DNA from: an uncultured Candidatus Rokubacteria bacterium
Lineage (GTDB): Bacteria > Methylomirabilota > Methylomirabilia > Rokubacteriales > CSP1-6
Direction of reading: 5' to 3'
Assembly: GCA_963789955.1 (NCBI GenBank)
Contig: CAWBMV010000034.1
Location: 416,001-480,000, forward strand
DNA: 64,000 nt
The position numbers and the translations under genes are program-made. Under the pieces are notes generated by a model. The model did not search any database and was not told where the DNA came from. It worked only from the letters and a program-made list of their open reading frames with translations. The number at the start of each line of letters is the position of its first letter. The stretch's first letter is position 1. Shown in pieces: positions 12,038 through 21,737 of the stretch.

Positions 12038-13156
12038 CTACGCGCGGCCCTCGAGCCCGATCGCGCGCGCCACGGTCTCCAGGTGAAGCTGCGCGTCGCC
12101 GAAATCGAGACTCGCCGCCTGGATGTGTTTGTGCAACAGGTGGAGCGGATGCTCCTCGCAATAGCTGATGGCTCCGAAGATCTGATGGCCGCGGCGCGCC
12201 ACCGCCAGGCACGCCTCGCCCGCGTAGGCCTTGGCGAGCGCCGCGTCGGCTTCGGCCGCGCGGCCCTCCGCGGCCTTCCACGCCGCCACGTACAGGAGCG
12301 CGCGCGCCGCATCCACGTCGCGTACGAGATCCGCGCAGGAGTGCTGGATGGCCTGGTAGCCGCCGATCGGACGCCCGCCCTGGACACGCGTCTTGGCGTG
12401 CTCGACCGCCAGCTCGAGCACGCGCTGGGCTCCGCCGACCATCTCGGCCGTCCGCGCGAGCGCGCCCGCTCGCAGGGCCGGCGCGAGCAAGCCGTCGCCG
12501 TCGCCGACGGCGCCGAGCAGGTCGTCCGGGCGAATCTCCACCCGATCGAATGTCACCTCGAAGAGCTTCTCGCCGCTGATCGCGTCGAGCGGCAGCCGCG
12601 CGATGCCGGATCGGTCCGTCGGCACGACGATCAGGGCCGGCGCGGCGCCGACCCGCACGGCCACGATGAGATCGTCGGCGATGTGCGCGTCCTTGACGAA
12701 GAGCTTTCGGCCGCTCAGCCGTCCGGGTACGGCGCACTCGAGCGCGACGGCGGCGGGATCGAACGACCCGCTCTCTTCCACGAGGGCGAGGCTCGCGATC
12801 CGCTCGCCGGCGGCCAGCGCCGGGAGCAGCCGTTTCTGCTGAGCCGGGCTACCGGCCGCGAGCACGAGTGACGTCGCCACCACCGCGCTCGCCACGAACG
12901 GGCCGGGCAAACCGGCTCGTCCCATCTCCTCGACGAGCACGATGACGTCGAGCAGGGAGCCGTCGCTGCCGCCGAGCTCGGCCGGGATCAAGAGCCCCGG
13001 CCATCCCAGCTCGGCCATGCGGCGCCACAGTGCCTCATCGAAGCCGCGCGCGTCGAGCGCCAGGCGCTGCACGAGCTCGGGCGGGCAGTGCTGGCGGAGG
13101 AACGCGCGGGCCGTCGTGGTCAGGATCTGCTGAGACGGGGACAGACGGAAATCCAT
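12038..13156 (-). CDS. Acyl-CoA dehydrogenase family protein (likely non-catalytic beta-type partner)
   Basis: 'MDFRLSPSQQ', 'LWRRMAELGWPGL..P..LGG', 'RVQGGRPIGGYQAIQH' and 'QIFGAISY'. Confidence 0.88.
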   Translation of the reverse strand: MDFRLSPSQQILTTTARAFLRQHCPPELVQRLALDARGFDEALWRRMAELGWPGLLIPAELGGSDGSLLDVIVLVEEMGRAGLPGPFVASAVVATSLVLAAGSPAQQKRLLPALAAGERIASLALVEESGSFDPAAVALECAVPGRLSGRKLFVKDAHIADDLIVAVRVGAAPALIVVPTDRSGIARLPLDAISGEKLFEVTFDRVEIRPDDLLGAVGDGDGLLAPALRAGALARTAEMVGGAQRVLELAVEHAKTRVQGGRPIGGYQAIQHSCADLVRDVDAARALLYVAAWKAAEGRAAEADAALAKAYAGEACLAVARRGHQIFGAISYCEEHPLHLLHKHIQAASLDFGDAQLHLETVARAIGLEGRA

Positions 13157-13157
13157 C

Positions 13158-14371
13158 TCAACGCGCCTTCGATTCGACGGCGACCTTCGGCTCGGCCGCG
13201 AGGCCGAGGCCGCGCACGGCAACGGTGGTGCGGAGGACCTCGGCGGTGCCGCCGGCGATCGTGTGGCCGAGGGTCGTCTGATAGAGGTGCGAGATCTGTC
13301 CGCCGAGCTTCGCCCACCGCGAGCCCTCGCGCAGCGGCCCCCAGAGCCCGAGCAGGTCCATGCCCAGGCGCGCCAGCTTCTGCCCGGTCTCGTCCGCGTA
13401 CACCTTCGCCATCGCGGTCTCGTAGGTGAGGGGCGCGCCGTCGCGGATGAGACAGCCGGCGCGATAGAAGATGAGGCGCAGCGCCGCGATGTCCGCGGCG
13501 ATCGCGGCCAGCCGGCGGCGCACGAACGGATCGCGCGCGAGCGGCGCGCCGCCGACGAGCGTCGTGTTGGCGTAGTCCACGAGCTGGCCGAGCACCCGCG
13601 CGAGCGCCGGCGCCTTGTAGAAGCGCCCCCAGAACCGGTCGGCGTCGAGCCCGTTCAGGAGCGCCTGGAAGCCTTCGCCGGGAGGTCCGAGCATGAGGTC
13701 CGCGGACACGCGCACGTCGTCCAGGAACACCTCGTGGTGATAGACCTCGCCGGTCATGCTGCGGATCGGCCGGATGTCCATGCCCGGCGTGCCGTTCGCG
13801 ACGACGAACATGCTGAATCCGCGGCTGCGCCGCGCCTCGCGGCTCGTTCGCGCGAACACGAGCCCGTGCGACGCGATGCCGGCGTGGCTCGACCAGATCT
13901 TGTGGCCGCGGATCACGTAGTGATCGCCGTCGCGGCGTGCCTCGGTCTTCAGCGCGAGCAGATCGGAGCCCGCGTCGGGCTCGCTGTAACCCTGCCAGAA
14001 CGTCGCCTCGCCGCGCGCGATCGCGGGCAGGACCTCGCGCCGCAGGCGCTCGGTCCCGAGCTCGATGACGGCGTCGGCCGTTTGCCAGACGCCGGCGAGC
14101 GGCCCGAACGGCGCGCCGGCGAGCGCCAGCTCCTCCATGAGGACGAGCTTCATGAACATCGGCTGCTCGCGGCCGCCCAGGCGTCTGTCGGCCAGCACAT
14201 GCTGATCCAGCCCTGGGCGCCGAGCGCCTTCATGAACGCTCGCGAGTTGGCGCCCGAGCCGTAGCCCGCGTCCATGCCGTCGACGGCGAACGTCTCGGGC
14301 GGGTTCGCGCGGAGGAATCGGCGAACCTCGTCGGCGAACGCCTGCTCGGCCTCGGTGAAGTCGAAATTCAT
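13158..14371 (-). CDS. Acyl-CoA dehydrogenase family protein; frameshift near 14200
   Basis: 'MNFDFTEAEQAF', 'FWQGYSEPDAGSDL', 'GHKIWSS' and 'TIAGGTAEV'. Confidence 0.9.
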
Positions 14372-14443
14372 CGAACGCGCCGGTCAGGATAACGCGTCCG
14401 CCGGGCGACCACCAGCGACCGCCTGATGATGTATGGTGTGGCC

Positions 14444-15383
14444 ATGCGCTACGGGTTCTATCTTCCGACTCGCGGTCAGACGGCGACGCCGGAGGCGCTC
14501 GAGACGCTCGTCCAGCGCGGCGAGAGCCTGGGCTTCGCCTCGGTGATGATCGCCGACCATCTGGTGTTCCCGGTCACGATCAAGTCGCGCTATCCCTACA
14601 CGGTCTCGGGCGATTTCCCGGGCAAGGGCGACGTCCTCGATCAGCTCTCGCTGATGACCTTCGTCGCCGCCAAGACCACGCGCCTGCGCCTGGTCACGAG
14701 CGTGATGATCGTGCCCTACCGCAATCCGGTGCTGACGGCCAAGGCGCTCGCGACGATCGACGTGCTCTCGAAGGGACGCGTCACGCTCGGCGTCGGCGTG
14801 GGATGGATGCGCGAGGAGTTCGAGGCGCTCGGCGCGCCGGAGTTCGAGCGGCGGGGCGCGGTGACCGACGAGTACATCCGCATCTTCAAGACGCTGTGGA
14901 CGCAGAGTCCCGCGTCCTTCTCGGGCGAGTTCTATCGATTCGAGGCGCTCCACTGTCGGCCGCAGCCCGTTCAGAAGCCGCACCCGCCGATCTGGATCGG
15001 CGGCCACAGCAAGGCCGCCCTGCGGCGGGCGGCGCGCCTCGGCGACGGCTGGCATCCGGTCGGCGCCAACGCGGCGGTCCCGCTGCCGCCCGTCGGAGCT
15101 GCGGCAGCTCCTCGACGAGCTCTACCGGCTCACCGAGGCCGAGGGGCGCGACCCCAAGTCGCTGACGATTTCGTACAAGGCTCCCGTGTACGACCTGAGT
15201 CAACGACAGCTCCCGGGCGGCGAGCGACGGCCGTTCTCCGGAGGCCCGGCGCAGATCGCGGAGGACATCGCGGCGTTCGCGCGGCTGGGCGTGAGCGAGA
15301 TCGTCTTCGACTTCCGCAGCGAAAGCCTCGCCGAGAGCCTCGAGCGGATGGAGAGCTTCGGCCCGGTGATCCGCCAGGGCTAG
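14444..15383 (+). CDS. LLM-class (probably F420-dependent type) oxidoreductase; frameshift near 15095
   Basis: 'ADHLVFP...YPY', '[25 protein letters not shown]' and 'PPIWIGGHS'. The C-terminus is ORF 15186..15383. Confidence 0.88.
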
Positions 15384-16115
15384 GCCGGCGGCTTCACGCG
15401 TCCGCGATACTGCAGATAGCGCGCGACCAGCCAGCACGGCAGCGCCCACGCGAGTCCCGCGGACCAGCCGGCGAGGACGTCGGTCGGGTAGTGGACGCCG
15501 AGATAGACGCGGCTGAGCGCCGATGAGCACCGCGAGCAGGAGCGAGACGACGATGCAGTACGTCCGGCTTCGTCGCCGCGGCACGAACCGCGCGAGGACC
15601 GCGCCGAGGGTGAGGTAGGTCACGACCGCGAGCAGCGAGTGACCGCTCGGGAAGCTGGCGCTGCCGACATTGACCAGGTGCGGCACGATCTCCGGCCGCT
15701 TGCGGGCGAACCACCACTTCAGAAGCTCGCTGAGCACGCCGCCCCCGGCGGTGGCGACGACGATCAGCGCGATCGCGTCGTACCGGCGCTCGAGCGCCAG
15801 GTAGCCCAACACGACCACGAGGAAGATCGCAAGGACCGCAGTGCCGCCGAGGGCGGTCACGTCGATCGCCACCTGGACGAGCCACGCCGGGCCGATCGGC
15901 ACGCTCGGATCGGCGGCGGAGCGCATCATGCGGAGCACGCCGTCGTCGAACTCGCGGAGATCGCCTTCCATCATCTCGCCGGCGGTTTTCGAGAAGGCGA
16001 GGAGAGCAAGGACGATCGCGAGCGACGCCAGCAGCACGCCGGCCTCCTGGCCGGTGAGCCAGCGGACGGCGAGCCGGAAGGCCCTGGTCGACGCGTGAAC
16101 CATTGTTCGCGACAT
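15380..16115 (-). CDS. PAP2 family membrane phosphatase; frameshift near 15520
   Basis: 'KWWFARKRP', 'SFPSGHS' and, in the next frame, '[17 protein letters not shown]'. Confidence 0.88.
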
Positions 16116-16198
16116 CCTCTCTCCATCGTACGTCCGACTACCAAGAGGCCGACGGTGCGGCGCACCTGTGGTACGCTCTCGCCGGCCATGAGGACGGC

Positions 16199-16919
16199 GT
16201 GACCCGACGCGCACAGATCGCCATCGTCGGTGACTTCACGCCGGCGAACGTCACCCACCAGCTCACGAACGCGGCGCTCGAGCACGTCGGACTCGGATTC
16301 ACGTGGGTGCCGACCGACGCTCCCGGCGACTGGGACGAGCGCCTGGCGGCGTACGACGGCGTCTGGATCGCGCCGGCGAGCCCCTACCGGAGCATGGACG
16401 GCGCGCTCGCGGCGGTGCGGTACGCGCGCGAGCGCGGAGTCCCGCTGGTCGGTACCTGAGGCGGTTTCCAGCACGCGATCGTCGAGTTCGCGCGCAACGT
16501 CCTCGGGTACCGAGACGCCGACCACGCTGAAACGAGCCCCGACGCCCCTCGACTGGTGATCACCGCGCTGGCCTGTTCACTCGTCGGGCAAGAGCAGCGG
16601 GTGGTGCTGGTCCCGCGCACGCGCGCCGCGCGTCTCTACGGCGTGGCCGAGGCGACCGAGCCGTACTACTGCAACTACGGCGTGAACCCGGACTATCGCC
16701 TGCAGTTCGAGGCGTGCGGCCTTCGGGTGAGCGGAGTCGGCGCCGAGGGTGAGATCCGGATCGTCGAGCTTCCCGGAGCATCCGTTCTTCGTCGCCACGC
16801 TGTTTCTCCCGCAGGCCCGCTCCACGGCGGCGAGCCCCCACCCGCTGCTCGTCGGCTACGCGGCCGCGGTCGACGCCTGCCGCGAAGCCCGCGCCCGCCT
16901 CTCGCTCGCCAAACCCTGA
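16199..16919 (+). CDS. Stand-alone CTP-synthase C-terminal-like class I glutamine amidotransferase; in-frame TGA at 16457-16459 is probably selenocysteine; frameshift near 16778
   Basis: 'IAIVGDF...YDGVWIAPASPYRSMDGALAAVRYARERGVPLVGT*GGFQHAIVEFARNVLG...YYCNYGVNP...ELP/HPFFVATLF'. The frame stays open and homologous after the TGA. Confidence 0.85.
16471..16495 (+). promoter_or_regulatory. Candidate bacterial SECIS hairpin
   Basis: GC-A-CGCGA (16471-16478) pairs with TCGCG-C-GC (16488-16495). The stem starts 11 nt after the TGA. Confidence 0.45.
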
Positions 16920-16958
16920 CGCGCTAACCTCCGCCGAACGCCGCCAGGCGTAGCGTTG

Positions 16959-17074
16959 CCAGGGCCAAGACGGCCTAGCTGCGAGGCGGCGCCGAAGGCG
17001 CACGCGAGCCGTACTTCGAGTACGGTGAGCGCGCGCCGAGGGCGCCGACGAAGCAGATGGCCTCGGCCGCCTGG
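16959..17074. repeat. ~115-bp nested palindromic intergenic element (REP/MITE-like or structured RNA) between convergent genes
   Basis: Nested pairings ccagg/cctgg, ggcc/ggcc, ctgc/gcag, cggcgcc/ggcgccg, ggcgcacgc/gcgcgcgcc and apex ccgtac-ttcga-gtacgg. Confidence 0.65.
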
Positions 17075-18050
17075 TTAGGTGTTGAGGCGGCGGCGCAGGA
17101 AGCCGAGCAGCCCCTGCGGCAGGAAGATGATCATGATGATGAAGATGATGCCGACGGGGATGAGGTAGTACTCGGTCAGGAAGCGCGAGAGCCCCTCGCG
17201 GAGCAGCAGGAAGAACGCGGCGCCCGCGAACGGGCCCACCAGGGTGCCCATCCCGCCCATCACGTTGAAGATCACGACCTCACCCGAGACCACGAAGAAG
17301 ACGAAGTCGGGCGCGGCGAACTTGTTCTGCATGGCGTAGAGCACGCCCGCGAGCCCGGCGAAGAGCCCGGAGAGCATCACCGCCACGATCTTGTACCGCT
17401 CGACGTGATAGCCGATCGCCCGCGTGCGCGGCTCGTTCTCGCGAATCGACTGGAGCACCATGCCGAACGGCGACTGCGTGATCCGCCGGACCAGCAGGTA
17501 GGAGAGCACCACGACCGCCAGCACGAACCAGTGAAAGGTCGTGGGCGTGAAGCGGTCGCTCCAGAGGCCCAGGATCGACAGCCGCGGCTGGCTGAACGTG
17601 AGGCCGTTCTCGCCGCCGGTGACCTCGGTCCAGGTGAAGATGATCACGTAGAAGATCTGCGAGAACACCAGGGTCGAGATCGCGAAGTAGATGTCGCGCA
17701 GACGCGTCGCGAAGTACGCGACGAACACGGCGGCGCCGCCGGCGGCGACCAGGCCGTAGAGCAGCGCCAGCGACAGGCTCGGCGGCTTCACGGTGAGGAG
17801 CGCGGCGGCCGCGCCGTACATGCCGAGGCCGAAGAACGCCGAGTGGCCGAACGAGACCATGCCGGTGTAGCCGATCAGGATGTCGGACGACATCGCCAGC
17901 AGCCCCCAGATCAGGATCTCCGTGACGAATCGCTGCCAGAACGGCGGGAGCACGAGCGGCGCCACCAGGAGGAGCCCGACCAGCAACGCGAAGGTGGTCC
18001 AGTAGCCGGCGGAGCGCGGCCTCCGGCCGAGCGGCGACCGTCGCGGTCAT
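17075..18050 (-). CDS. Branched-chain amino acid ABC transporter permease (LivM-like); probable frameshift near the 5' end
   Basis: 'GYTGMVSFGHSAFFGLG', 'VTGGENGL', 'SIRENEPR..AIGY' and 'GGMGTLVGP'. Confidence 0.9.
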
Positions 18051-18907
18051 TTCGGCGTCGGGACGAACAGGCCGGTGGGCCGGAAGAGCATCGTGAGCAC
18101 CAGGACCACGAACGAGACGATCACCGCCTGAGCCGGGCTCACGATGATCGCGGCGTAGCTCTCCAGGAGGCTGACGAAGATCGAGGCCAGGATCGACCCG
18201 CCGAGGTTCCCCATCCCGCCGACGACCACCACGATGAACGCGCGCAGGGTGAAGTCGAATCCCATCGTCTGGGTCACACCGGCGAACGGACCGAACAGCA
18301 CGCCGCTGGCCGCCGCCATCGCCGAGCCGATCGCGAACACCGCGGTGTAGACCAGCGGCACCGGGATGCCCATCGCCTGCGCCATCACGCGATCCTGGGT
18401 CGTCGCGCGAATCCAGATGCCGTACTTGCCGTACTTCAGGAAGAGCCAGAGCGCGGCGATGATCAGCCCGGCCAGCACCGCCGTGGCGATCCGGTACCAG
18501 GGGTACTGCAGATAGAAGAGGTTGAAATCCCCGGGGACCGGCGCGCTGATCTGGCGCACCGACGGGCCCCACTGCCAGAGCGCGTACTTCTGGATCACGA
18601 GCGAGACGCCGAACGTGGCCAGGATGGTCGTCAGCGGATCGCGGCCGATCAGCGGCCGCAACGTCGTGATCTGCAGCAGGGCGCCGAGGATGGCGATGAC
18701 GACCATCGCGACGATCAGCGCCAGCCAGTAGCTGCCGGTGACACCCAGCACGCTGGCGCCGACGAACGCGCCGAGCATCAGCAGATCGCCGTGCGCGAAG
18801 TTGACGATGTCCATGATGCCGAAGATGAGCGTGAGCCCCGAGGCGACCATCGCCAGGACCATGCCGTTCACGAGGCCGTGGAGGGTTTGGATGATGATCT
18901 GGTCCAT
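18047..18907 (-). CDS. Branched-chain amino acid ABC transporter permease (LivH-like)
   Basis: 'GLTLIFGIMDIVNFAHGD' and 'AFIVVVVGGMG'. Confidence 0.92.
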   Translation of the reverse strand: MDQIIIQTLHGLVNGMVLAMVASGLTLIFGIMDIVNFAHGDLLMLGAFVGASVLGVTGSYWLALIVAMVVIAILGALLQITTLRPLIGRDPLTTILATFGVSLVIQKYALWQWGPSVRQISAPVPGDFNLFYLQYPWYRIATAVLAGLIIAALWLFLKYGKYGIWIRATTQDRVMAQAMGIPVPLVYTAVFAIGSAMAAASGVLFGPFAGVTQTMGFDFTLRAFIVVVVGGMGNLGGSILASIFVSLLESYAAIIVSPAQAVIVSFVVLVLTMLFRPTGLFVPTPK

Positions 18908-18908
18908 C

Positions 18909-19616
18909 TCAGACCCCCAGGTACTCGTGGATGACGCGTTGATCGGCGCGCAGCTCGGCGGCCGAGGCGTGGTGGCGCACGGTGCCCTTCTCCATGATGT
19001 AGACGCGCCCGGCGGCGTCGAGCGTCAGCGGCACGTTCTGCTCGACCAGGAGAATGGCCACGCCCTCGCGGTGGAGCGCGTGCACGATCTCCTGGATCTG
19101 CCCGACCATGCGAGGCATGAGCCCTTCGGTCGGCTCGTCGAGCAGGATGATCTTCGGCTCGAGCACCATCGCGCGGGCAATCGCGAGCATCTGCTGCTCG
19201 CCGCCCGACAAGGTGCCGCCGGCCTGGTTGCGCCGCTCCCTCAGGATCGGAAAGTACGCGTAGACTTTGTCGAGCAGCGCATTGCGCCGGGCGGGTGTCA
19301 TGCCGGCGCGGTCGAGCCCGGTGCGCAGATTCTCGAGCACGGTGAGCAGGCGGAAGATCCGCCGTTCCTCGGGCACCCAGGCGATGCCGAGGCCGGCGAG
19401 CCCGTGTGGCGGCACGCCGTGGAGATCCCGGCCCTCGAAGGTGATGCGACCGCCGGTGCGGCGCGCCATGCCCATGATGGTCTTGAGCGTCGTGGTCTTG
19501 CCGACACCGTTGCGCCCGAGCAGGCCGACCACCTCGCCGGCGCGCACCTCGATCGACACGCCGTGGAGCACGTGGGACTTGCCGTAGTGGGCGTCGACGT
19601 TCTCGAGGACCAGCAT
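18909..19616 (-). CDS. ABC transporter ATP-binding protein (LivF-like)
   Basis: 'GRNGVGKTT', 'LSGGEQQMLAIARA', 'LLDEPTEG' and 'LLVEQN'. Confidence 0.92.
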   Translation of the reverse strand: MLVLENVDAHYGKSHVLHGVSIEVRAGEVVGLLGRNGVGKTTTLKTIMGMARRTGGRITFEGRDLHGVPPHGLAGLGIAWVPEERRIFRLLTVLENLRTGLDRAGMTPARRNALLDKVYAYFPILRERRNQAGGTLSGGEQQMLAIARAMVLEPKIILLDEPTEGLMPRMVGQIQEIVHALHREGVAILLVEQNVPLTLDAAGRVYIMEKGTVRHHASAAELRADQRVIHEYLGV

Positions 19617-20371
19617 CAGATCTTGAGGTAGACCTCTTGAACCCGCGGGTTGGCCTGGATCTCGGCGGGTCGGCCCTCGGCCAGCACCTCGCCGTAGTTC
19701 AGCACCGTGATCGTGTGGGCGAGCCCCATCACGACTTCCATGTCGTGCTCGACGATGAGGATCGTCAGGCCGCGGGCGATCCGACGGATCAGATCGACCG
19801 TGGCGTGCGTCTCGGTCACGCTCATCCCGGCCGTCGGCTCGTCGAGGCACAGGAGCTTCGGCTCCGTCGCGAGCGCGATGCCGATCTCGAGGTTGCGCTG
19901 CTCGCCGTGCGAGAGATTCGACGCGAGCTCGTCCTCCTTGCCGGCCAGACCCACGTCGGCCAGGACGGCGCGCGCCCGGGCGATGACGTCCGTGTACGCC
20001 CGGTGGTGGCGCAGCATGCTCCAGTTGTGATGGCGGGACTGGCTGGCGATCCGCACGTTCTCGAGCACGGTCGCGCCCGGCAGGATGTTGGTGATCTGGT
20101 AGGAGCGCGCGATCGCCTTGCGCGAGATCGCGTGGGGCGGCAATCCCGCGATGTCCTCGCCGTTGAACTCGATCCGGCCGCTCGTCGGGCGGAGCACACC
20201 CGTCAGGCAGTTGAAGAAGGTGGATTTGCCGGCGCCGTTGGGGCCGATGATCCCGCGGATCTCACCCCGCGGGACGGAAATGCTCACGTTGTTGACGGCG
20301 GCCAGACCGCCGAACCGCACGGTCAGAGCTTCCGTCTTGAGGATCGGAGCGGATTCGGTCAGTGCGGACAC
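19616..20371 (-). CDS. ABC transporter ATP-binding protein (LivG-like)
   Basis: 'GPNGAGKST', 'LSHGEQR', 'LDEPTAGM' and 'VEHDM'. Confidence 0.92.
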   Translation of the reverse strand: MSALTESAPILKTEALTVRFGGLAAVNNVSISVPRGEIRGIIGPNGAGKSTFFNCLTGVLRPTSGRIEFNGEDIAGLPPHAISRKAIARSYQITNILPGATVLENVRIASQSRHHNWSMLRHHRAYTDVIARARAVLADVGLAGKEDELASNLSHGEQRNLEIGIALATEPKLLCLDEPTAGMSVTETHATVDLIRRIARGLTILIVEHDMEVVMGLAHTITVLNYGEVLAEGRPAEIQANPRVQEVYLKI

Positions 20372-20385
20372 GCTCTAGCGAATGA

Positions 20386-20420
20386 CTCGGAGCGTCCCAT
20401 CGACCGCGGGACGCTCCGAG
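20386..20420 (-). terminator. 13-bp stem-loop between the SBP and ATPase genes (mRNA-stabilising hairpin or partial terminator)
   Basis: ctcggagcgtccc - 9 nt - gggacgctccgag. Confidence 0.55.
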
Positions 20421-20432
20421 CCCCCATGGCCT

Positions 20433-21737
20433 CTACGCGAACTTGCAGGCCGGCGGGACGATCGTCTTCTCCTTGGCAATCGTCTCCAGGAGCTTGTGCT
20501 TGTTGTTCTGGATCGTGAAGATGAACTCGCGCAGGAACGCCTGGTGATCTTCCTTCCGGAGTCGTCTTGTCGCCCTGCGGGAAGTCGTCGCTTTCCTTGA
20601 CCTCCATGCCCTCCAGGGCCTCGATCAGGTTCATCGTGTCCTCGCGGCCGCGGAACCGGGACTTCTGCATGCCGAGCTTCAGGAAGTTCATCGCCTCGAA
20701 GTTCGACTGCACGTAGCGGTCCGGCAGCGGGCCGGACGGGTCGATCTTCTTGAGCTCGACGACGGCCTGATCGAAGAACTTCTTGTGGTACGGCGTGTTC
20801 AGCGGCGGGTCCATCACCGGGATGTACCGGTTGATGCCGACGAACCCCTCGATCTTCTGGCCCAGCGCGGCCAGGTGCGTCGACTCCGCGATGGCGCCGT
20901 CACCCGCGTACTTGTACTTCTTGGTGAGCCCGAGGTCGGCGATCGCGCTGGTGAAGCTGACGGCGTTGGCCCCGAAGAAGATGCCGAAGAGCCCGTCGAA
21001 GTTGCCGCTGATCTTCGAGACGAACGGCGCCATGTCGGCCGTGCCCAGCGGCACGCCGGTGGTGCCGACGACCTCGCCGCCGTTCTTCTTGATCTGCTCG
21101 ATGAACGCGTCCTGGTCGACTGCCCCCAGGCGTAGTCGAGGTACGCGATGTGCCACTTCTTGCCGAGCTTCGAGGTGAGGTACGGGGCGAACGCGACGGC
21201 CTGGGCCGGCGCATAGTCGAACGGTCGGAAGACGTAGCGGCTGCACTTGCTGGTCGTGATGGTGGTGTCCAGGCACACGCCGATCATCCACGCGGTCTTG
21301 TTCTCCTCGAAGACCGGCATGCACGCCAGGCACACGTTCGAGAGATAGCCGCCCTCGGCGACGTCGACCTTGTCCTCGAGCACGAGCTTCTCGGCCTTGC
21401 GCCGGCCGACGTCGGGCTTCGACTCGTAGTCCGCGACGACCAGCTCGATCGGCCGGCCGTTGACGCCGCCCGAATGGTTGATGCGGTCGACGGCCATCTG
21501 CGTACCGACCAGCGCCGTCTTGCCGCCGGCCGCGCCGGTGCCGGAGAGCGGCTGGAGCACGCCGACCTTGTACGGCTTGGCCTGACCGAAGGCGTCTCGC
21601 CACGGCGCTGGGACCAGCATCGTCGCGCCCAGCGCGCCGGCGGTCGCCGACGTCAGCGCGAGGAACTTGCGCCGCGTCGTCTTGCCGCTCCACCACATGT
21701 GCTTCGCCCAGGCTTCGTCGTGCCAACGTTCATGCAT
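20433..21737 (-). CDS. Tat-exported ABC substrate-binding protein (LivK/periplasmic binding protein type 1); two frameshifts (~21115, ~20560)
   Basis: Twin-arginine 'TRRKFL', 'VGVLQPLSG', 'GGVNGRPIELVVAD' and 'YLDYAWGQS'. Confidence 0.85.

Follow-up and report, generated by a model that had tools for sequence, protein, structure and literature searches.

Introduction

The closest described structures to the gene analysed here are the glutaminase domains of CTP synthase, PyrG (PDB 5n29, 1s1m and 3nva). They have the same fold (Z 30.5, TM about 0.85–0.9) and share with the gene product the nucleophile elbow and the Gln and Glu of the substrate pocket. The family of our gene differs from them in lacking the synthetase domain and in three active-site stretches: the triad His-x-Glu is replaced by Leu-x-Gln, RHRYE by YCNYG, and the GGFG oxyanion strand by ASPY. 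The numbering of the E. coli CTP synthase triad and oxyanion strand is confirmed by PMC9138612. According to PMC5413811, on the T. brucei enzyme, His499 lies near the nucleophile Cys419, and another rotamer of this residue could reach the thiol, while Glu502 keeps it away. The same paper places Gln423, Arg500 and Tyr501 in the pocket.

A selenoprotein of this kind has already been predicted. The deep-Sep report (PMC12013277), in its passage on the family, presents as a newly predicted selenoprotein a "glutamine amidotransferase (COG0504, PyrG)" that has both TGA and Cys homologues together with a SECIS-like structure. A 2026 review (PMC13188914) lists NF004836, with the motif GxUxG, among predicted selenoprotein families in its Table 1, and mentions one Methylomirabilota genome with 63 predicted selenoprotein genes. 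As far as the deep-Sep passage goes, our gene has the same Sec position, motif, stand-alone form and SECIS-like hairpin, and no difference at the family level; its example comes from Desulfosediminicola, while the orthologues of our gene cluster with Rokuibacteriota and Methylomirabilota loci in the tree, which makes a host from among these likely. The passages on the family in the two sources give no function and mention neither the loss of the triad His nor the second cysteine. A search of the open literature, which left subscription journals and the NCBIfam comment text outside its scope, found no paper on the function of NF004836. The review draws here on Deng et al. 2026. The gene call itself is ordinary, a split gene correctly rescued in a family already predicted to hold selenoproteins, and the added value lies in a mechanism, open to test, for a family that is widespread and frequently annotated by mistake as "CTP synthase".

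Gene structure and family assignment

The window, that is, the whole analysed stretch of 64,000 nucleotides from an uncultured Candidatus Rokubacteria bacterium, contains the following features of the gene.

16199..16919, + strand: NF004836/PRK06186 family gene, 239 aa with Sec87 in the frame of its relatives; a 1-base insertion breaks the frame
16256..16258, + strand: His20, conserved and specific to the family, where helix 1 begins; the genome's own PyrG has Tyr here
16457..16459, + strand: in-frame TGA, codon 87, predicted Sec87 in the nucleophile elbow (G-T-U-G-G-F-Q)
16471..16495, + strand: SECIS-like hairpin, 11 nt after the UGA, with GU in the loop region at +25/+26 (U of UGA = 1)
16574..16576, + strand: Cys126, third conserved Cys (75/76 Sec rows, 176/188 Cys rows)
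16670..16672, + strand: Cys158, invariant second Cys (264/264) at the His of CTP synthase RHRYE; predicted resolving Cys
16770..16771, + strand: extra T (frameshift) in the alignment with two related genes, likely an assembly error
16806..16814, + strand: Leu203-Pro-Gln205, replacing the class I GATase triad His-Pro-Glu, from the alignment

The earlier note had described one gene split by an in-frame TGA that falls on the nucleophile Cys, and both the ORF frames and the CTP synthase alignment agree with it. The two ORF pieces (16103..16459 and 16556..16927) share one frame, which from the GTG start at 16199 reads VPLVGT*GGFQHAIVEFARNVLG, the asterisk being the TGA at 16457-16459. A GAGGA stands upstream of the start at 16190-16194; a scan for promoters and terminators found none. 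The TGA codon aligns with the nucleophile Cys of CTP synthase, and the surrounding residues, G-T-U-G-G, form the GxUxG motif. The protein stands alone, its 239 codons holding no synthetase domain, and a separate intact pyrG is located on contig C17.

The gene is a member of NF004836 (NCBIfam), an already catalogued family, in line with the remark in the earlier note that curated names include seleno-variants. With the family HMM, whose curated cut-off is 260, the 194 aa ahead of the frameshift scored 246.5 bits and the two pieces in the window 238.2 (profile 2-196) and 32.2 (profile 194-227); intact orthologues scored 266-303 bits. Searches of Pfam and NCBIfam returned only GATase matches and no MsrA or fRMsr family motifs, and a search of the Atlas returned the same family name only. 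The predicted structure of an intact orthologue (pLDDT 95.4) has the class I glutamine amidotransferase fold with its nucleophile elbow. Its best matches were the CTP synthase glutaminase domains (rmsd 1.9 over 222 residues); the next fold family followed at Z 23.2, with the gamma-glutamyl hydrolases 7d50 (Z 23.2) and 3fij (Z 21.8).

Frameshift and selection on the downstream half

The ORF 16556..16927 enters the wrong frame beyond residue 191. On account of the extra T at 16770-16771, the last 48 residues, with the FLPQ that the earlier note had read at the triad position, are encoded one frame on from the TGA, as is the stop at 16917-16919. The gene end at 16919 holds in the frame of the relatives, but the change of frame had gone unmentioned.

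The insertion is likely an assembly error. It is quite improbable that the extra base is real and that this copy is a recent pseudogene of the strain, a possibility that is independent of the chemistry of the protein. The frameshift is present in the assembly, and the public runs compared come from near relatives and not from the source sample, the best of them holding a 0.34 share of the words. But three independent public runs of these near relatives each yielded one contig without the extra base, and five single-base insertions are private to the window within 8 kb in comparison with three named relatives. selD and one EF-Tu-like match are likewise split in the same assembly. Moreover, dN/dS against two relatives, with small counts, was 0.04-0.06 after the break, 0.06-0.09 from the UGA to the break and 0.12-0.28 before the UGA. 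Relaxed selection downstream of the UGA, which the earlier note had named as a refuting sign, was looked for in this way; the values of 0.04-0.09 indicate that the downstream half is under purifying selection.

The private insertions in the window region 12400-20500 are located near 14180, 14420, 15090, 15520 and 16770, and they split neighbouring acyl-CoA dehydrogenase-like, LLM-like and PAP2 genes. Other apparent splits within this region should be read with care.

Probable reading of the internal UGA as selenocysteine

The genome encodes the full set of genes for selenocysteine insertion, for which the earlier note had proposed a search: selC, selA and selB share a 5-kb stretch of contig C1, and selD is located on contig C6. 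The selD gene (about 164,400-165,326 of C6) is itself a predicted selenoprotein gene with an in-frame TGA in a Cys-Ala-Gly-Sec motif. It has a strong hairpin after the TGA, different in sequence from that of the amidotransferase-fold gene.

In the proposed comparison of TGA with Cys codons in homologues, TGA was present in 26 of the 26 NF004836 orthologues over the cut-off from 61 related genomes; one of them also has a TAG, the copies of the source genome and of G011 are split by frameshifts with the TGA present in both, and one of the 61 genomes has an extra Cys paralogue. A pattern scan of GTDB for the TGA form gave 118 loci, spread over 26 of the 64 parts into which the collection is divided; of these loci 88 are family members and 30 are chance matches below 100 bits that were left out. 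The 88 loci include Rokuibacteriota, Chloroflexota, Actinomycetota, Acidobacteriota, Dormiibacterota, Bacillota, deltaproteobacteria and others. Some of them come from genomes already among the relatives, and duplicate sequences were merged ahead of the column and folding counts. Two rows in the Sec counts (L072 and L115) come from the unpublished genomes G079 and G101. Among the rows listed, contigs from the runs of near relatives had no other letter at the TGA.

selA was over the cut-off in 44 of the 50 TGA-form genomes tested, which cover 50 of the 88 loci. This co-occurrence is a weak test because the background in one sampled phylum, around G084, is 191 of 251 genomes (76%, including the unpublished G148, G255, G283 and G337). 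In that phylum selA was found in five of six Cys-form genomes, and one of four TGA-form genomes showed none. The share of 191/251 is in itself a very high proportion of Sec users.

The UGA aligned to a conserved Cys, the UGA homologues elsewhere and the presence of selA, selB, selC and selD are the features expected of a bacterial selenoprotein, and they uphold the earlier reading of the UGA as Sec in a stand-alone CTP-synthase-like GATase fold. The internal UGA very likely encodes the predicted Sec87 at the reactive site, and it is almost certain in our judgement that SelB and tRNA-Sec would read it by means of the downstream hairpin. In the RNA run X15, a few short contigs covered 16471-16630 and none spanned the UGA, so that expression is unsupported by this run; several of the short pieces were CTP synthase fragments of other organisms. 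One protein record (P0003), near the Sec-form L042, has Trp at the nucleophile, which is likely a TGA called as Trp.

The downstream hairpin

The hairpin at 16471-16495 does begin 11 nt after the UGA as first described. Its role as a SECIS element is supported across homologues, but folded alone it was not above chance (z -1.21; 26 of 200 shuffles folded equally well). In the 30 bases compared under synonymous resampling, the mean folding z was -1.52 in 71 distinct Sec sequences versus -0.41 in 109 Cys sequences from the metagenome scan. A stem in one of three registers was found in 65 of the 71 Sec and 17 of the 109 Cys sequences, a contrast that is overstated because the registers were read from the Sec set itself and related, non-independent sequences are included. 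Some stem pairs show changes on both sides among the Sec sequences. Furthermore, the four 4/6-fold codons of the hairpin are invariant in 25 close orthologues, compared with a top-codon share of 66% at 93 codons elsewhere. These comparisons indicate that the hairpin directly 3' of the UGA is under selection, which is evident only by comparison across homologues.

In the loci L039-L156, the three stem registers lie 12-45 bases past the TGA, two bases apart, and differ by lineage over the same peptide. All three have a G or GU near +24 to +26.

Loss of the triad histidine

The Cys-His-Glu triad of class I GATases is incomplete in this protein, in which the His and Glu columns are occupied by Leu and Gln. 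In the 78 Sec rows the triad His column is nearly always Leu, Gln, Val or Ile and never His. The Cys-codon forms likewise have Leu, Val or Gln in this column; His occurs in none of the 119 Cys proteins and in one of the 70 Cys-codon loci, that is, in 1 of 189 Cys rows. The sole His-bearing row, L236, is a metagenome contig and likely an assembly chimera, since its sequence changes from this family to CTP synthase at the FQH motif common to both.

The earlier note proposed an amidase or glutaminase in which a Sec nucleophile needs no activation by His. The absence of the triad His from all 78 Sec rows and the lower pKa of a selenol fit this proposal, but 188 of the 189 Cys rows are also without His and the exception is likely chimeric. 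Sec does not replace the triad His because the His is absent from the Cys forms too (0/119 proteins have it, and 69/70 Cys-codon loci lack it). In a FastTree tree of 202 rows, built without the frameshifted rows L035 and L036, all 200 His-less rows fall on one long branch. Within this branch the Sec/Cys state changes 7 times, at least 5 of the changes being forced by well supported branches. The His loss thus lies at the base of the family and the Sec/Cys switches came later; the loss predates the Sec/Cys state and does not depend on it. The tree thereby contradicts the proposal as an explanation of the His loss, and we consider an enzyme of that kind very improbable. From alignment and tree, Sec is best described as an optional upgrade of the nucleophile, gained or lost repeatedly, and not as a fix for the lost His.

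Conserved residues and the second cysteine

The conservation counts were made on 76 Sec and 188 Cys rows, without L035, L036 and L236. All 264 rows have Cys158 and 251 of them have Cys126, while His20 is present in 247 of 257 (65 of 71 Sec rows and 182 of 186 Cys rows). Ser61-Pro62-Tyr63, Gln91, His92, His109 and Glu111 are also kept in the family. The GT-GFQH columns are fixed by the search pattern in the DNA-derived rows, and Gln91 and His92 are invariant in the 119-row protein alignment as well. In the alignment with the genome's own PyrG and the CTP synthases of the PDB, Cys158 takes the position of the His of RHRYE and Gly161 that of its Glu, while Gln91 and Glu111 coincide with their PyrG counterparts. 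In E. coli CTP synthase, Gln383 and Glu403 bind the amino acid end of glutamine.

The new feature that the alignment brings out is the invariance of Cys158 at the position of CTP synthase His499. From the alignment and the remark in PMC5413811 on the alternative rotamer of this His, Cys158 is predicted to lie beside the reactive site. The position of Glu502 is Gly in most of the NF004836 family (85-100% by group). The earlier note had judged the protein a hydrolase rather than a redox enzyme; this is doubtful because of the invariant second Cys at an active-site position.

Proposed redox chemistry and its alternatives

At slightly less than an even chance, we suggest that the protein uses the CTP synthase glutaminase fold for selenol/thiol redox catalysis and is not a glutaminase. 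A small, glutamine-shaped amino acid would occupy the former glutamine pocket, anchored by its alpha-amino acid end. Sec87, or Cys in other members, would attack the group at the delta position and become oxidised. Cys158, at a position able to swing to the nucleophile in CTP synthase, would resolve the product, giving a selenenyl-sulfide, and the enzyme would be recycled by Cys126 or by a thiol of the cell. If Cys158 does resolve in this way, a hydrolase fold has been converted to redox chemistry, which would explain the selenium in the NF004836 family. Section 7 of PMC13188914 judges that most uncharacterised selenoproteins are likely redox proteins.

The single best guess for the substrate, a speculative one, is free methionine sulfoxide. 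This compound is isosteric with glutamine, and its S-methyl would face the residue (Leu, Val or Gln) that replaces the triad His. The full proposal is that NF004836 is a GATase fold turned oxidoreductase whose pocket takes an oxidised amino acid such as free methionine sulfoxide, with attack by Sec/Cys87 and resolution by Cys158; in this specific form it is tentative and rather unlikely. If true, it would be a structurally new family of sulfoxide reductases, extending from enterobacteria and streptomycetes (Cys forms) to soil Rokubacteria and Chloroflexota (Sec forms). MsrA and free methionine-R-sulfoxide reductase use a catalytic Cys or Sec together with resolving cysteines. The likeness of the NF004836 protein to them is confined to this proposed chemistry on an amino acid sulfoxide, whereas its fold and sequence are unrelated to theirs. 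A Sec-containing MsrA appears in Table 1 of PMC13188914.

In another reading, the protein remains a hydrolase or transfers acyl groups, and does so with a rearranged dyad. The acyl group of a substrate, gamma-glutamyl or a comparable one, would be bound covalently to Sec/Cys87 as an acyl-enzyme, with help from His20 or another conserved His in the role of the triad His. The conservation of His20 (247/257 rows), which arises on the same branch as the loss of the triad His, is consistent with this, as are the retained Gln91 and Glu111 and the gamma-glutamyl hydrolases as the nearest folds other than CTP synthase. The GNAT fusions and the nearby LysR regulators and LysE exporters described below suggest small-molecule turnover, which also suits it. 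A rearranged dyad, however, leaves the invariance of Cys158 and the retention of Cys126 unexplained, and we regard it as possible but on balance unlikely.

His20, His92, His109 and Ser61-Pro-Tyr63 fit a rearranged hydrolase dyad and a metal site equally well. The protein might bind a metal through three Cys/Sec and three His residues (U/C87, C126, C158, H20, H92 and H109), or act as a covalent trap, a decoy for electrophilic glutamine analogues, without turnover. For this reading speak the conservation of these six residues, the divergent LysR regulators by 7 Cys-form loci, the GNAT fusions and the modification of the CTP synthase nucleophile by acivicin (PMC5413811). Against it, the flanking ORFs scanned include no recurrent metal transporter or resistance cluster, and the residues that bind the substrate are retained, as expected of an enzyme. 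A metal-binding or trapping role is in our view improbable.

Genomic context and fusions

We scanned 173 flanking ORFs, 84 of them from Sec loci and 89 from Cys loci, with close relatives thinned, and found no conserved partner, thioredoxin or Msr. LysR regulators, GNATs, ABM proteins and LysE and MFS transporters recur a few times, and there are single cases of an OsmC-like gene and of a gene for a Cys/Met PLP enzyme. Neither these ORFs nor 17 longer forms of the protein include a neighbour or fusion that points to redox or methionine metabolism, or a recurring synthase. A conserved operon was considered and rejected, as the liv-type ABC and PAP2/LLM neighbours hold only among close relatives.

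MsrA is present in 52 of the 61 related genomes, including the source genome (the unpublished G025 counts only in this tally and in the denominator of 61), and so leaves no gap for the NF004836 gene to fill. Complementarity with MsrA was not seen across these genomes.

GNAT acetyltransferase fusions make up 9 of the 17 longer forms. They are Cys forms (P0130-P0138) in at least three arrangements, both N- and C-terminal. At 7 Cys-form loci in the scan, a divergent LysR regulator gene is adjacent. Among the bacteria with Cys forms are culturable ones.

In an Ardenticatenaceae genome (L039:2051-4500), pyrG is directly followed by the Sec-form gene, to which it is structurally closest. At eight loci (L159, L163, L165, L169, L171, L186, L208 and L217), a Cys form is located between a DUF488 gene and an MFS transporter in a context of enterobacterial type, and the plasmid records there call it "CTP synthase", apparently a mislabel.
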